From contig CAZUZB010000005.1 in NCBI GenBank assembly GCA_964624695.1, positions 1 through 34,251 of the forward strand: a stretch of DNA of 34,251 nt, read 5' to 3'. This document shows, piece by piece, positions 10,930-34,251 of this stretch (the stretch's first letter is position 1; each line of letters opens with the position of its first letter). Origin of the DNA: an uncultured Anaerolineales bacterium. Lineage in GTDB: Bacteria > Chloroflexota > Anaerolineae > UBA1429. The notes beneath the pieces were generated by a model that saw only the letters and a program-made list of their open reading frames with translations, was not told the origin of the DNA and did not search any database. Position numbers and translations under genes: made by a program.

Positions 10930-11677
10930 GGCGCCTCGCCATCTGTCTCGCCGCGCAGGGGCTCGAACACGGCCTCGCTGGCAACCGATGCAGCAGCTCG
11001 GTCACGCTCGCCAACAAGAGGTCCGGCGCATGCTGGCCCACAAAGGCCTCGCGGCCGATAGCTGCGCCGGCATACACCACCGCCACCGTCCGAGCCCCCG
11101 CCGCCTTGCCCGCAGCCACATCCATCGGGTGATCGCCGCACATCAAGCAGCACTCTGCGGGAATGCCCAGACGCGCCGCCGCATCATAGAGATGCCGTGG
11201 ATCGGGCTTGACGTGCTCGGTGTCATCGCGGGTGACCAGCACGTGGTGCACCAGCGGATGACGGGCGAGCACGTCGGCTACCGCCCGGCGGCAGTTGCGC
11301 GTGACGATGCCGATGCCATACCCCCGTTCCGCCAGCTCCGCCAGCGCCTCCGTTACCCCATTGTACGGCTGAGCGAACCGCGCCGCCGCCATCTCGATCG
11401 CCTCGATGGCCTCGGCCGCCTCACGACGGAACGCTGCCGCACGGTCAGCCTCCAGGCAGCCGGCCACAGTGGCGACCATCTCGAGAGATGGCCGACGGTC
11501 CCAACCCTCGGCATCGATCCCGTATCGCCTCGCCAATGCCAACACGGCAGACCGCATAGCGGCAAAGTCGATGGTCTGGTGGACTAGCGTACCATCGAAA
11601 TCAAACAGCACAGCGCAAGGGCCGTCAGGCGCCGATCTCGCGGCGGAATCTGCGGCCACCCTATCAGCCGGCGCCAT
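10922..11677 (-). CDS. HAD-superfamily hydrolase (phosphoglycolate / sugar-phosphate phosphatase-like, subfamily IA)
   Basis: The track ORF 10922..12022 is over-extended, because its first 115 codons overlap the NHL coding frame. The internal ATG at 11677 gives 251 aa starting MAPADRV... with HAD motif I (VLFDFDGTL), motif II (GIVTRN) and motifs III/IV (KPDP...CGDHPMDVAAGKAAGA). It overlaps the upstream stop by 14 nt and the downstream start by 8 nt. Confidence 0.8.
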   Translation of the reverse strand: MAPADRVAADSAARSAPDGPCAVLFDFDGTLVHQTIDFAAMRSAVLALARRYGIDAEGWDRRPSLEMVATVAGCLEADRAAAFRREAAEAIEAIEMAAARFAQPYNGVTEALAELAERGYGIGIVTRNCRRAVADVLARHPLVHHVLVTRDDTEHVKPDPRHLYDAAARLGIPAECCLMCGDHPMDVAAGKAAGARTVAVVYAGAAIGREAFVGQHAPDLLLASVTELLHRLPARPCSSPCAARQMARRHG

Positions 11678-14600
11678 AGGCGCTGCCCTCGAACACCAGG
11701 ATGCGATGATTCTCGCTATCGGCCACCAGCACGCGGTCGGCACCATCCACAACGATGCCCGTCGGCAGTTGCATCGAGCCCAGATCGGTGCCGAACTGCC
11801 CCCACACATCCAGGAGCCGCCCCTGCCCATCGTAGACGAGCACCCGGTAGCCCTCAGGATCGGTGGCGTACACATTGCCCGACGCATCCACCGCGAGGTA
11901 GGGCTTGTTGACCACCGACACGCTCTCCCAGGCGTACAGATCCCACGCATGGGAGAACTGCCCATCCGGCGCAAAGGCCTGGATGCGATGGTTCCAGGTA
12001 TCGGCCACGTACAGCGTCCCATCGGGCCCCACGGCGATGCCCACCGGCTCCTGGAACCGGCCCGCGTCAGAGCCGGCGCCGCCGATGCCCAGGATCATCT
12101 CCCCTTGGGGCGTATACTTGACGATGCGCTTGTTCCCGGTGTCGCTCACATACACATTGCCGTCGCCATCGATGGCCACGTCACGCGGCCCATACAGCAG
12201 GTCGCCGTCACCGGTGGCGCCGGTCTGGCCAAAGGTGCCCCACTCGCGCACATAGCGGCCATCGGGATCAAAGACCTGGATCCGGTGGTTCCAGGTATCA
12301 GCGACGTACACATAACCCTCGGCGTCCACGGCCAGGCCCCACGGCTCCAGGAACTGGCCCGGAGCGGAGCCCTCGCTGCCCCACTGCCGCAACAATACGC
12401 CCGATGAGCTCAGAACCTGGATGCGGTTGTTCTGGCTATCGGCCACATAGAGGTTGCCCTGGGCGTCCGTGGCCAGGCCCTTGGGCGCGCGGAACAAGCC
12501 CGCCTCGCTGCCGGGTCCACCCCAGGCCACGGTGGCCTCGTGCGGGCGCCACAGCGCCAGATACTCGTCCCCGGGCAGCGGCTCGGCCGCCGCGCTCACC
12601 TCGGGGCCATAGTCCCATAGCTGCATGGCAACGTCACGCCGCACATACATGGCGAACTTGTTCACCAACGGCCACGCGTCCAGGCTATGCTGTGACTTGC
12701 GATACCAGATCACATTCCACAACTGACGCCGCCCCTCGGCGCTGCGGAGGTCGCTCCACAGCGTCTCGGGCATCCGTATGTACCAGTCCTGGTCGGGCCA
12801 CCAGATCAGTCGATACTGCCGCCTGAAATAGCGATCCCCCAAGAACGGCTTGATGGCCGACTCGTTGGATGGCCCCACCAGGATCACATCCGCATCCGCC
12901 GCGCCCTCTGTCGCCCCCACAAAGTAGGTGGCATTGGTAAAGTCGCGCAGATACCAGACGAACGGCCAGCTACTATCGTTGTCATAGGCGACGCGCAGAT
13001 GGAGCCCACCCGTCAGACGGTGCGACATCTCCTCCAGTTCGTTGGCCACCACCGCCACATCCGGCGCTCCCTGCGCATAGAACAGGAACTCGGTGACCAG
13101 ATCCTGGTTGATGAACGTGACCATCCACGCAAAGCGCACGGTGGCGGCCATGAGCACCAGCACCAGCGCCAGCGCCGTCAGGCGCCACGCCTCGCTCCGG
13201 CGCAGCCGCTTGACGATCTGCACCACGAACGCCGCCACAATGCCCACCATCACCAACGCCGCCAGCCATCCCATGGTCTCGCGCAACGCCTCAAGCGTGG
13301 TGCCCAGAGAGAACTGCCGCTGGAGCAGCATCGCCAGGGAAAGTATCAGCAGCGGCACCAGCAAGAACAGCCAGAGGCCGCCCCGTTGGCGCACCGAACG
13401 CCAGTCAAGATTGACCAAGCGCGCCAGGGCCCAGCCGCCCAAAAGCTGCATGGGCACCGCGATATGCAAGGTCAGCCAGGGCATCTTTTCGCCGGCCCAG
13501 GAGTAGATCACGAACGCCGCCCAGGCCCACAATATCAGCAAGGCCGCCACGGGCAACGGGCGCGCCACACCCTCGGCGTCGTCCAGGGCTGGCGGCTCAC
13601 CATCCAGCGCCGCCGGCGTCGCCTCACCCCGCAGGGCATACACCGCCGTGCCAGCGATCCCCAGCGCCACCGGTAAGAACTCGTACAGCCCCATCTGCAC
13701 GATATAGTAGAACCAGGGCTGGCTCCCGCGCGCCTCCCCGTGCTGTGAAAGCCAGTAGCCCAGCGAGCCCACCACGCCGGTGGCCAGCCCCTGGCCGTTG
13801 GTGAACATGGTGGTAAAGAGCGGCACCGTGATGCCCCAGAACACGCCCGCGCATGGCAACCAGAGCTTGCGATTCCAGAGGAGCCCGATACCCACACTGG
13901 CGGCCAGCACCACCCCAAAGATGATGCCCGACGAGACGATGCCGCTGGCCGAATAATCCACCGGATCGAACCCCAACGCCTGGATGGCAAAGGGGGAGGC
14001 CCAGGGCAGCAGCAGCGTGCCCATCACCATCAGCACATCGTAGGCGGGGCGGTCGGTCAGGTTGGCGTGCCGCAGATACGCCCACAGCGACCCAGCATCG
14101 GGCTCGCGGTCGCGCAACACCTCCAGGACATAGTAGCCAGCCATAAAGATGCCAAAGATGGCATAAGTGATAAAGGTGGTCTCTTTGCCGGCAAAGCCCA
14201 GGGCATAGCTGGCGGCCAGGATCACCAGATCGCGGGGACGACGACTCTCCAGGTAGCGCAGCATGGCCCACGCCAGCACCAGGTTGAATAGTATTGCCCC
14301 CTGGTCATGCCGGATAAAGCGCGACCGCGCCATCACCACGGGCGAGATGGCCATCAGCAGCATGGCGAGCAACGCCCCCCGTTTGCCCAGCCAGCGACGG
14401 AACGGAATAGCCATCGCCACGATAGCGATACCGAGTAAGGAGGTGCTCAAACGCGCGGTATAGTCGCTGTGGCCAAACAATGCATAGATCAGCGCGGTCC
14501 AGTGGTACAGGAACGGCCCATGGTAGACGGGGTTGTGCTGATAGCCCTGCCCCGTCACCAGCTTCCAGGCCTCCCAGGCATGGATGCTCTCATCGTGGCT

Positions 14601-33135: not shown

Positions 33136-33152
33136 GCGCGCGCCCTGCCCGC

Positions 33153-34251
33153 CTAGGGCCAGGTGATCTCTGCCAAGCCCAGGGCTTGCTCCAGCTCGGC
33201 AGAGCTCAGCGCGACGGTGCGGCGGAACACCAGCGGCTTGGGATGGTCGTACACGGTAAAACTCTCGTCCGCCATACCCAGGTTCAGGGCACGGCGGCTC
33301 GCCTCCGCTTCCGCCACCAGCGCGGGCATGGGCAGCCCCACGTGATCGAACGTGTCGTCGACCAGCTCCACCCCCGCCAAGCCAGGATAGGCCGTGCTCA
33401 AGTGCACCAGCTCGAAACCCAGCTCTTCCGCCATCAGGGCCTGATAGTAGCGCGAGGTCAGTGGATAGCGCTCGGGCAGCCGAGGGATGGTGTTATACAG
33501 CCGATGGGTAGAGAGCACGATATAGTCGGCGCTCTGCAGGTAGCCCAGCAACTGGTACGCCTTGTCGCGGGTATCGGCATCGTAGGCAGGGAACCGAAAC
33601 ACGTTCAGGTCCGTGTAGCAGGCGTCGGGCCCGGTACGACGTTGCGTCAGCGGGAGCGGATCGTCCCAATGCTCGACCACGACGATCGATCCGCTGGGCA
33701 CCGTCTCGCAGATGTAGCGGGTCGTCTGGATCCACGGGTGCGTCTGCGCATAGACGCGCAGGTAGGCCAGGGCATACAGCGCCGTGGCCACCATCACCGC
33801 GCCCGCCGCCACGCGTCCTAGCACCCGCGCCCATCGCGCGCGCAGACCCCACGCCCGCCACAAGAGGTGCCCCGCCCACAGGCATAGCAGCGGCGTGATC
33901 GGCAGCATGTACCGGGCAAACTTGGCATGGAGGCCGCCCACGGCCGCCACATACACCAGGCACCAGGATAGCGGCACCAGTAGTGCCACCGCCCGATCTC
34001 GCTCCTTTGCCACGAATCCACGGATCACGAGCCCCACCTGGAGCGCCATCCCCGTCAGCCCGGCCACGCCCAGCGGCACCCCCAGCGACCAAATCAGCAG
34101 TTGCCGCAGATGGTACAGATAGGGGATCGTTCCAGCATACTGGCGGGTGTAGGGTACATCAATGGCACCGCTGGCCATGCGGCCCTCGTGGATCACGTCC
34201 GTCAGAAAGCGAAACGGATCGATGACGGCATAGGGCTGGGCCGCCGCCATG
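33153..34251 (-). CDS. GT-C-like membrane protein, 5'-partial; stand-alone paralog of the giant protein's N-module
   Basis: The frame is open to the window edge. The visible 365 aa align with aa ~340-700 of the 2386-aa protein:
- SGAIDVPYTRQYAGTIPYLYHLRQLLIWSLGVPLGVAG vs SGEIDYPPSHQWAARAPVWYMLKNMLLWGQGLPLGLAA
- KFARYMLPITPLLCLWAGHLL vs KTIRYLLPIYPTMALMAGYLV
- YPLTSRYYQALMAEELGFELV...ADESFTVYDHPKPLVFRR vs YPMTTRFYEALFAGELGFEQV...ADESWTVYDHPKVTIFRK
The N-terminal part, with its expected acidic loop, must lie beyond the window. Confidence 0.85.
   Translation of the reverse strand, partial: MAAAQPYAVIDPFRFLTDVIHEGRMASGAIDVPYTRQYAGTIPYLYHLRQLLIWSLGVPLGVAGLTGMALQVGLVIRGFVAKERDRAVALLVPLSWCLVYVAAVGGLHAKFARYMLPITPLLCLWAGHLLWRAWGLRARWARVLGRVAAGAVMVATALYALAYLRVYAQTHPWIQTTRYICETVPSGSIVVVEHWDDPLPLTQRRTGPDACYTDLNVFRFPAYDADTRDKAYQLLGYLQSADYIVLSTHRLYNTIPRLPERYPLTSRYYQALMAEELGFELVHLSTAYPGLAGVELVDDTFDHVGLPMPALVAEAEASRRALNLGMADESFTVYDHPKPLVFRRTVALSSAELEQALGLAEITWP

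Follow-up and report, generated by a model that had tools for sequence, protein, structure and literature searches.

What do ten consecutive minus-strand genes, among them one for a giant membrane protein, build together in a Chloroflexota bacterium? This question is raised by positions 11664-34251 of a 34,251-nt stretch of DNA from an uncultured Anaerolineales bacterium (the whole stretch is hereafter called the window), where nine polytopic membrane modules in seven genes are accompanied by a flippase-like protein, a glycosyltransferase (GT) of family GT4 and an S-adenosylmethionine (SAM)-dependent methyltransferase. A preliminary description, made from the letters alone, had read the region as a lipid-linked glycan line built around the YYY family (TIGR03662; PF10060, DUF2298) and a TIGR03663 partner. 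In our study, profile matches, synteny and the predicted GT-C fold of the YYY proteins were found to favour this reading, whereas the TIGR03663-like (Agl23-like) proteins may flip a lipid rather than transfer a sugar. We consider it reasonably probable that the region is a conserved Chloroflexota cassette which assembles a glycoconjugate at the outer side of the cytoplasmic membrane. The cassette genes are numbered from g10 (upstream) to g1 (downstream), g4 being the giant, and their features are as follows:

33153..34251, minus strand: g10, C-terminal 365 amino acids of a PMT_2-type GT-C protein, about 621 amino acids when complete
32017..33051, minus strand: g9, 344 amino acids, PplT/MprF-type flippase-like membrane protein (UPF0104, COG0392)
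30890..32020, minus strand: g8, 376 amino acids, cytoplasmic GT4 (GT-B) glycosyltransferase, the start overlapping the stop of g9
30000..30884, minus strand: g7, 294 amino acids, SAM-dependent methyltransferase (PF08241 Methyltransf_11 at 8.4e-19)
28026..29993, minus strand: g6, 655 amino acids, PMT_2-type GT-C membrane protein (PF13231 at 2.4e-16)
26061..28022, minus strand: g5, 653 amino acids, PMT_2-type GT-C membrane protein (PF13231 at 9.7e-12)
24014..26113, minus strand: N-module of the giant (g4), about residues 1-700, PMT_2-type GT-C with a C-terminal soluble domain (PF13231 at residues 168-267)
21479..24013, minus strand: first YYY/DUF2298 module of the giant, about residues 701-1545 (TIGR03662 stretch 721-1539)
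18953..21478, minus strand: second YYY/DUF2298 module of the giant, about residues 1546-2386 (second TIGR03662/PF10060 stretch), 37% identical to the first
16617..18953, minus strand: g3, 778 amino acids, stand-alone YYY/DUF2298 protein with a predicted GT-C fold and an AglB-like C-terminal globular domain
14765..16528, minus strand: g2, 587 amino acids, divergent Agl23-like/PMT_2-like membrane protein
11664..14768, minus strand: g1, 1034 amino acids, with an Agl23-family membrane domain, an alpha/beta domain and a six-bladed NHL beta-propeller

The YYY assignment was borne out by TIGR03662 and PF10060, which matched g3 with 522.6 bits (cut-off 300.25) and 384.4 bits (cut-off 27.8) and the giant (2386 amino acids) with 1030.4 and 741.3 bits, in two stretches each. 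The motifs ISYYYLG, INYYYLG and LNYYYYG were all found in the YYY modules of the window, as they had been read before. On the other hand, the family is larger than the preliminary description had assumed in limiting it to some Chloroflexi, Archaea and one Clostridium, and amounts to about 10,000 clusters at 50% identity. In an alignment of 57 sequences, which includes the two modules of the giant, the residues E126, K127, D147, R285, E302, D312, H314, H316, N368, D371, E550, R561 and N563 are invariant and are retained in all three modules of the window; N135 and the Y157, Y158 and G161 of YYYxG are invariant across the same sequences. The signature motifs of the family are EKPM, YYYxG, WWWWRxSR, EFPFFS...GDxHxH and RMNTVFKF, and the C-terminal domain carries GWxGHExQWRG. 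In the literature searched, no function was found for DUF2298, TIGR03662 or COG5427, and the YYY half of the pair is uncharacterised as had been said; the same does not apply to TIGR03663, for which flippase activity of Agl23 has been published.

The three dimensional structure of g3 has been predicted with AlphaFold2 from the 57-sequence alignment (predicted local distance difference test score, pLDDT, 89.9; predicted template modelling score, pTM, 0.93), with sixteen transmembrane helices predicted in the protein. In a Foldseek search of this model against the PDB, all nine matches with E <= 0.001 were GT-C enzymes, namely DPY19 (8e-7), AglB (3e-6), AftA (target-normalised TM-score 0.51) and a translocon chain that contains STT3, and these were followed by ArnT (5.5e-3), AftB and AftD. 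A Foldseek probability of 1.0 was obtained for 7zlg, 5gmy, 7e9s and 9n9j_I, and transporters appeared with a probability of 0.2 or less only. Moreover, the C-terminal globular domain matched the C-terminal domain of AglB (3vu0) with a probability of 1.0 and a target-normalised TM-score of about 0.5. With the helix boundaries of the model, the short loops hold 16 lysine and arginine residues inside versus 7 outside, and all invariant polar residues as well as the C-terminal domain fall on the low-charge, predicted outer side, E126 and D147 lying within the predicted first outer loop (119-175). The model thus points to a GT-C-like rather than a transporter-like protein whose invariant acidic residues would stand in extracytoplasmic loops, and to a topology in which the polar residues may face outwards.

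The predicted build, with a multi-helix core, a first outer loop with an invariant acidic residue and an outer C-terminal globular domain, is shared with STT3/AglB/PglB and with DPY19. In contrast to these enzymes, the YYY proteins have no hidden Markov model (HMM) or profile match and no WWDYG motif, carry different signature motifs and have sixteen predicted transmembrane helices. Membership in the oligosaccharyltransferases (STT3/AglB/PglB) was considered and rejected, as no STT3 or archaeo_STT3 match was found on any YYY module; the YYY profile retrieved no oligosaccharyltransferase from the PDB sequences. YYY/DUF2298 thus stands as a family of its own, for which the model predicts a GT-C fold and an oligosaccharyltransferase-like build, and its recognition as such is new here. 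It is also separate from the Agl23-like family, because the profile-profile comparison (hhalign) of YYY with the Agl23-like membrane domain gave a probability of just 0.7%.

Of the two Agl23-like proteins, g1 belongs to TIGR03663 with 261.3 bits over residues 35-612 (cut-off 126.25) and matches PMT_2 at 1.3e-15, and the HDE...YHGP signature expected of it is present. Among 46 homologues of g1, no variation was seen in H58-D59-E60 and Y82-H83-x-P85, and the conservation of G84 is at least 90%. The remainder of g1 was identified from five NHL repeats (HMM, 4.2e-50) and from an AlphaFold2 model (pLDDT 86.2) showing a helical membrane domain, an alpha/beta domain and a six-bladed propeller, the latter with a target-normalised TM-score of about 0.9 to NHL structures. 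In case of g2, the earlier assignment as TIGR03663-like has to be weakened, as its match (2e-20, 73.3 bits) lies under the same cut-off, only the E (E61) of 'DE' is invariant in its family and HGP is replaced by YSP. The Pfam profile scan gave g2 no match of its own, and its orthologues in two related loci (L083 and L084; loci of relatives are numbered with L) carry PF13231 PMT_2. By the curated test g2 is a divergent relative of Agl23 and not a member.

Public homologues of g1 are named 'flippase activity-associated protein Agl23', which is the NCBIfam name of TIGR03663. Agl23 of Haloarcula hispanica has been described as a putative hexose-P-dolichol flippase, and the purified protein (HhAgl23) translocates M5GN2-PP-dolichol in proteoliposomes and suppresses the yeast rft1-delta defect (PMC11182771). 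Because of this flipping of M5GN2-PP-dolichol, g1 and g2 may be flippases, or linked to flippases, rather than transferases or polymerases. Taken further, this gives another explanation of the locus, in which g1, g2 and possibly YYY would be flippases or scramblases, or WaaL-/Wzy-like polymerases or ligases, acting on polyprenyl-PP-linked glycans made elsewhere. The activity of HhAgl23, the NCBIfam name that follows it, the loss of the D of 'DE' and of the HGP motif in g2 and the presence of two kinds of flippase-like protein in the cassette all speak for such an export or ligation machine. GT-C-like folds occur in ligases and polymerases too. However, the YYY fold matches with E <= 0.001 are transferases, and catalysis fits the Agl23-like g1 and YYY since H-D-E and Y-H-G-P in the g1 homologues and the acidic and histidine residues of YYY are invariant or nearly so. 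The export or ligation explanation is thus held to be distinctly improbable.

The proteins at the promoter-proximal end and the PMT_2 proteins matched PF03706, the GT4 families, Methyltransf_11 and PMT_2 as had been predicted. The flippase-like g9 is a member of the MprF-type flippase domain family by the curated cut-offs, with PF03706 (LPG_synthase_TM) matching over all 302 profile positions at 5.6e-46 and 157.8 bits (cut-off 33.4) and TIGR00374 (flippase-like domain) at 73.2 bits (cut-off 43.2), its flipping activity being putative. The GT4 protein g8 matched PF13692, PF00534, PF13579 and PF13439, and Tll1590, PimA and PimB' were its closest solved relatives by sequence. A role of g8 as gpgS-type GlcNAc-phosphatidylglycerol synthase (NF053787, GlcN_PG_synth) was tried and rejected, as the match reached 50.1 bits against 480 and covered the C-terminal part only. 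The GT-C assignment of g1, of the giant N-module, of g5 and g6 and of the g10 orthologue was made with PF13231 PMT_2, which they match above its cut-off. The partial g10 is 77% identical to residues 257-621 of its 621-residue orthologue in the closest relative (L081), and this orthologue matches PF13231 at 9.8e-14. The STT3 scores of g5 are sub-threshold (22 bits versus 24.5 for STT3; 16 bits versus 450 for archaeo_STT3), and an acidic motif was read directly from the sequence as GDE in g6 and PDE in the giant N-module. Together with D59 and E60 of g1 and E61 of the g2 family, these would be the counterparts of the conserved acidic residue which GT-C enzymes carry in their first extracytoplasmic loop, the topology being a predicted one. 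By pairwise comparison the nine modules form four subfamilies, i.e., g10 with the giant N-module (33% identity), g5 with g6 (26%), g2 with g1 (38% over the N-terminal part) and the three YYY modules (32-37%).

Conservation of the gene order carries the cassette reading further. With the 778-residue g3 as query and one genome per species, 276 YYY relatives were found, and the best 80 of the 276 are almost all from Chloroflexota. By tblastn, the order GT4, (methyltransferase), PMT_2, N-module fused to one or two YYY, YYY, (g2-like), Agl23-NHL is kept in Anaerolineae (including the cultured Flexilinea flocculi), Phototrophicaceae, Aggregatilineales, Thermoflexus, Chloroploca and Ktedonobacterales. 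With the flippase-like gene ahead, the order recurs in dozens of species-level Chloroflexota genomes, and it is complete through Agl23-NHL in L001, L006, L083, L019, L028, L061, L071 and L169. The independently annotated L083 reads LPG_synthase_TM, GT4, methyltransferase, a 2319-residue PMT/PMT_2/DUF2298 giant, DUF2298, PMT_2, PMT_2-NHL, HAD, NUDIX and PolyA_pol. A survey centred on GT4 covered the 80 closest loci found with a GT4 alignment, which was used in place of g9 as the latter gave just 2 loci as a single-protein query; the denominators differ between genes. The flippase-like gene stands directly upstream of GT4 on the same strand in 52/74 loci, and downstream of GT4 a methyltransferase is found in 53/73 and a PMT_2-type gene in 48/61, with the N-module in 39/52 and YYY in 35/49. 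The supposition that flippase-like, GT4, methyltransferase, PMT_2, YYY and TIGR03663-like genes form a conserved cassette is thereby upheld across Chloroflexota.

Further, neighbouring genes of the cassette occur as fusions, and these argue for a joint function. In L060 (positions 14-2440; a metagenome-assembled genome labelled 'bacterium isolate LB3_1'), GT4 and a SAM methyltransferase share one open reading frame (ORF) with no internal stop, and many giants of 2,000-2,750 residues combine the N-module with two or three YYY stretches. PplT has been reported in fusion with GT-B and with SAM methyltransferase domains, with Chloroflexi among the carriers (10.1101/2022.03.11.483950). In another Chloroflexi genome, a published neighbourhood table places DUF2298 beside PMT2 and PMT2-PA14 proteins (PMC8756737). 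On plasmid pNP95 of the Firmicute Pseudobutyrivibrio xylanivorans (L086, 9932-12187), a DUF2298 gene belongs to a polysaccharide locus in which its neighbours are two GT2 genes and one gene each for a DegT aminotransferase, an NDP-sugar epimerase/dehydratase and a member of the O-antigen ligase family.

A minimal core of YYY, Agl23-like and flippase-like genes was found in 18 loci, 16 of them in metagenome-assembled genomes labelled Dehalococcoidia. In all four Dehalococcoidia loci examined (L013, L014, L022 and L057; about 8000-17300), rnc (RNase III) and ftsY directly precede the core, and neither GT2 nor GT4 is adjacent to it there. In L013 and L022, the two loci scanned for the next gene downstream, a flavin amine-oxidase-family gene was observed after the core, with an SDR gene as well in L022. 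The pairing of YYY with TIGR03663, which had been expected in Chloroflexota and Archaea alike, stands for the Chloroflexota cassettes but was not seen in a small archaeal sample, four haloarchaeal loci in which no Agl23-like ORF was found within 10 kb of YYY by tblastn and a custom HMM. A YYY gene of Halarchaeum was also rebuilt across a plasmid origin. At one of these loci (L091 8642-9445, Haloarchaeobius), a GtrA/DPMS transmembrane-domain protein is encoded divergently upstream of the YYY gene; the other three have unrelated neighbours.

Whether the genes are mere neighbours was considered together with the layout of the region. The ORF coordinates were confirmed on the sequence, along with the small gaps and the listed junctions, i.e., TTGA at 32017-32020 (a 4-nt overlap of g9 and g8), TGATG at 18951-18955 (giant and g3) and ATGA at 14765-14768 (g2 and g1); an overlap of g5 with the giant, of 53 nt from the first ATG or 14 nt if a later ATG is used, had been missing from the list. 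The spacings are +5 nt for g8/g7, +6 nt for g7/g6 and +3 nt for g6/g5. From 33051 down, the 88 nt at 16529-16616 are indeed the only real gap, and further upstream the 101 nt at 33052-33152 are a real gap too, these two being the only ones within the array. The boundary at 11664 could not be maintained, as the overlapping minus-strand run extends to 7757 through genes for a HAD hydrolase, a NUDIX protein, a CCA-type nucleotidyltransferase and a GFO oxidoreductase. With its start at 11677, the HAD gene overlaps the g1 stop, and the spacings after g1 are -14 (HAD), -8 (NUDIX), -14 (CCA/poly(A)-polymerase family) and +4 nt (GFO/IDH/MocA oxidoreductase). Since genes unrelated to the cassette are tightly coupled as well beyond 11664, translational coupling is common to this part of the genome in general; spacing alone cannot delimit a functional unit, which has been defined by conserved synteny instead. 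The HAD, NUDIX and CCA genes follow the cassette only in close relatives (L001, L004, L006 and L083) and for this reason were dropped as members of the system.

It could accordingly be argued that a compact genome explains the spacing and that the membrane proteins serve unrelated glycosylation tasks. The run of coupling into genes kept only in close relatives, the two internal promoter-like boxes and the YYY genes of haloarchaea that stand alone agree with such an explanation, but the same order across distant Chloroflexota classes and the domain fusions between adjacent genes oppose it, and we regard it as very improbable.

The array is probably not transcribed as a single unit. Between 11000 and 34251, the minus strand has only two copies of TATAAT, at 33111-33106 and 16553-16548, and these sit in the two real gaps, each preceded by TGn. 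In the 101-nt gap the sequence reads TTGGCG-18-TGcTATAAT, the only sigma-70-like match in 16000-34251, and in the 88-nt gap it reads TGgTATAAT. Since the TATAAT boxes occur only in the two real gaps, about three transcription units are likely, with g10 ending the first, g9 to g3 forming the second and g2, g1 and the downstream genes the third; transcription probably starts from two internal promoters with these -10 boxes. A hairpin with a 10-bp G+C-rich stem (GGAUGGCCCC...GGGGCCGUC; about 33097-33072, minus strand) lies in the 5' untranslated region between the -10 box and the start of g9, and in a comparison with shuffles the folding of the whole 101-nt gap has z = -2.25. A 36-bp palindrome at 16594-16629 (GCGCCCGCGCTACCGCGG|CCGCGCTACCGCGGGCGC) is 89% complementary with no spacer and spans the stop of g3, the second -10 box following some 40 nt downstream; the palindrome may serve as an operator or form an RNA hairpin. 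Terminator-like sites were no commoner than in shuffles when intrinsic terminators were sought, and Rfam gave 0 hits for known RNAs or riboswitches in the gaps.

Comparison with known systems suggests what the trio of g9, g8 and g7 may do. The gpgSDF operon of Pseudomonas aeruginosa, with GT4 and UPF0104 genes, makes GlcN-phosphatidylglycerol (GlcN-PG), and in both gpgSDF and hexSDF a glycosylated membrane lipid is the joint product of a GT4-type synthase, a tailoring enzyme and a UPF0104 protein, the last of which has been proposed to flip it (PMC12713373). As in gpgSDF and in hexSDF of Clostridioides difficile, the GT4 of the window has a UPF0104/COG0392 protein and a tailoring enzyme as its neighbours, but for tailoring a SAM methyltransferase is encoded here and a deacetylase there, and nine GT-C modules accompany the trio here. 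In Archaea, UPF0104 genes cluster with PMT/STT3-like (arCOG00563) and AglD-type GT2 genes in glycosylation neighbourhoods (Makarova et al. 2015, PMC5898192). These resemble the cassette in pairing a PF03706 flippase-like protein with a PMT-like polytopic protein, and the Agl22/Agl23 system of Haloarcula hispanica shares the Agl23 family, g1 being above the TIGR03663 cut-off with the DE and HGP motifs. In contrast to the archaeal systems, the cassette is bacterial, has no adjacent GT2 dolichol-P-sugar synthase, fuses Agl23 to an NHL propeller and adds the YYY modules and three further GT-C proteins.

The mycobacterial pathways to phosphatidylinositol mannosides (PIM), lipomannan, lipoarabinomannan and arabinogalactan (PimA/PimB', PimE, MptA-C, EmbA-C, AftA-D) share with the cassette the logic of GT4 lipid priming, flipping, a battery of paralogous GT-C enzymes and polyprenyl-P-sugars made elsewhere. 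AftA, AftB and AftD are among the YYY fold matches, and PimA and PimB' among the nearest solved relatives of g8. On the other hand, there is no sequence-level relationship to the Emb, Aft and Mpt families, and the genes here stand in one cassette with a PplT flippase-like gene; we know of no identified PIM flippase in mycobacteria. The three-component systems (GtrA/GtrB/GtrC, CsbB/GtcA/YfhO and ArnC/ArnEF/ArnT) share the scheme in which a flipped lipid-linked sugar is used by an outside GT-C enzyme, and ArnT is a YYY fold match and a GtrA-domain protein the neighbour of one haloarchaeal YYY gene. The window differs from them in having neither GT2 nor GtrA and in a flippase-like protein of the MprF/PplT type.

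From the likeness to gpgSDF and hexSDF and from the archaeal UPF0104 neighbourhoods, a methylated glycolipid made inside, flipped and elaborated outside is proposed, and by this analogy the cassette is probably a glycan assembly line with such a glycolipid as primer. The cytoplasmic GT4 and the methyltransferase would glycosylate and methylate a membrane lipid, which may be a glycerolipid or phospholipid rather than polyprenyl phosphate, and the PplT protein would move the glycolipid to the outer leaflet, as proposed for gpgSDF and hexSDF. The GT-C modules would then add sugars from polyprenyl-phosphate-linked donors, the donor enzymes presumably being encoded elsewhere in the genome. The Agl23-like proteins would supply flipped polyprenyl-P-sugar or act as transferases, the YYY proteins, with their oligosaccharyltransferase-like membrane core and outer globular domain, may catalyse transfer on the outer face, and the acceptor may be bound by the NHL propeller of g1. 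These steps would yield a component of the Chloroflexota envelope, either a lipoglycan, a wall glycopolymer or a glycoprotein; we infer this product, as well as the analogy to Emb/Aft, by comparison with the known systems.

A number of facts weigh against this assembly line. The likeness of YYY to GT-C enzymes is remote (TM-score 0.3-0.5), and the link is by predicted fold only, as neither phmmer nor a profile search retrieved a match for YYY among PDB sequences. For the membrane part of g1, the GT-C fold comes from the PMT_2 HMM alone because the fold search was swamped by NHL: the best 50 of the 381 matches with E <= 0.001 to the full-length protein were all NHL-propeller structures, and the profile of the membrane part had no match among PDB sequences. 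The likeness of g8 to PimA/PimB' lies mostly in the generic C-terminal half, and g8 scores far too low for any of the named families of lipid glycosyltransferases. Priming by a glycolipid cannot be universal either, as the Dehalococcoidia core has no GT4 and no methyltransferase, and the two likely internal promoters mean that sub-modules could be expressed separately. A GT2 polyprenyl-P-sugar synthase is found neither in the window nor further upstream in the closest relative, where lepA, an AI-2E transporter gene, tlyA/ftsJ, rplM, truA and rpoA precede the g10 orthologue, so donor supply is assumed; Wzx/Wzy and ABC exporters are likewise absent from both, in agreement with the preliminary description. 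Finally, activity, donor, acceptor and product are putative for every protein of the cassette.

Part of the same evidence can be read as a protein glycosylation system. In this explanation, YYY would act like an oligosaccharyltransferase and the PMT_2/Agl23-like proteins as protein O-glycosyl (mannosyl-type) transferases on secreted, S-layer, sheath or filament proteins, with the NHL propeller and other outer domains binding the protein acceptors and the flippases delivering lipid-linked sugars. The YYY fold matches include the protein-modifying DPY19, AglB and STT3, with an AglB-like C-terminal domain, PMT_2 is the superfamily of the protein O-mannosyltransferases, propellers of the NHL type serve in interactions, Agl23 acts in haloarchaeal N- and O-glycosylation and the YYY family is common to Chloroflexota and Archaea. 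Putative O-glycans have also been reported on a Chloroflexota archaellin, by a machinery as yet unknown (PMC12488501). However, YYY has neither an STT3, AglB or PglB HMM match nor WWDYG, the known systems for protein glycosylation make do with fewer than nine GT-C modules, the cassette has no conserved gene for an acceptor protein, and the GT4, methyltransferase and PplT trio looks like the glycolipid operons. Protein glycosylation is therefore judged a serious, though unlikely, explanation beside the assembly of a glycoconjugate on a flipped glycolipid.

Elsewhere in the window, a 472-residue protein with a C-terminal polysaccharide deacetylase domain (1244-2662) and an 837-residue protein resembling GH2 beta-mannosidase (3775-6288), both of them types that act on glycans, are separated from the cassette by unrelated genes. 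Many long ORFs in other frames or on the other strand lie over real genes, e.g., 18917-20140 (plus), 20835-21758 (minus) and 21993-22955 (minus); with their Arg/Pro/Gly/Ala-rich translations, these are by-products of coding DNA with 66% G+C and not genes.

The kind of system is already known, i.e., lipid-linked, flippase-dependent and GT-C-mediated glycosylation on the outer face, and public annotation covers parts of it as 'DUF2298 domain-containing protein' and 'flippase activity-associated protein Agl23'. What is new is the ten-gene conserved cassette with fused multi-GT-C giants, paired with a glycolipid-type GT4/methyltransferase/PplT sub-module. The cassette is widespread in the phylum and concentrates nine outer-face glycosyltransferase-like modules in one locus, around a family (DUF2298/YYY) with neither experimental data nor a solved relative, and it may define a new glycosyltransferase family. 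The catalytic-type invariant motifs of the Agl23-like proteins also bear on the debate whether such proteins are flippases, transferases or both. The envelope of Chloroflexota is multi-layered, without genes for lipopolysaccharide or BAM, and its layers have been 'suggested' to be polysaccharide or protein (PMC13319060), and surface proteins of the phylum are apparently O-glycosylated by unknown machinery (PMC12488501). The cultured carriers Flexilinea flocculi, Thermoflexus hugenholtzii and Chloroploca offer candidates for further studies. As a tentative extension, which we hold to be possible rather than likely, YYY would be a new GT-C glycosyl- or oligosaccharyl-transferase family that builds, with its partners, a major and as yet undescribed Chloroflexota envelope polymer. 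This would be a lipoglycan with a methylated glycolipid as its anchor, put together outside the membrane by fused giants of about 2,400 residues. If true, this envelope polymer could account for the unexplained outer layers of the Chloroflexota, which lack an outer membrane.

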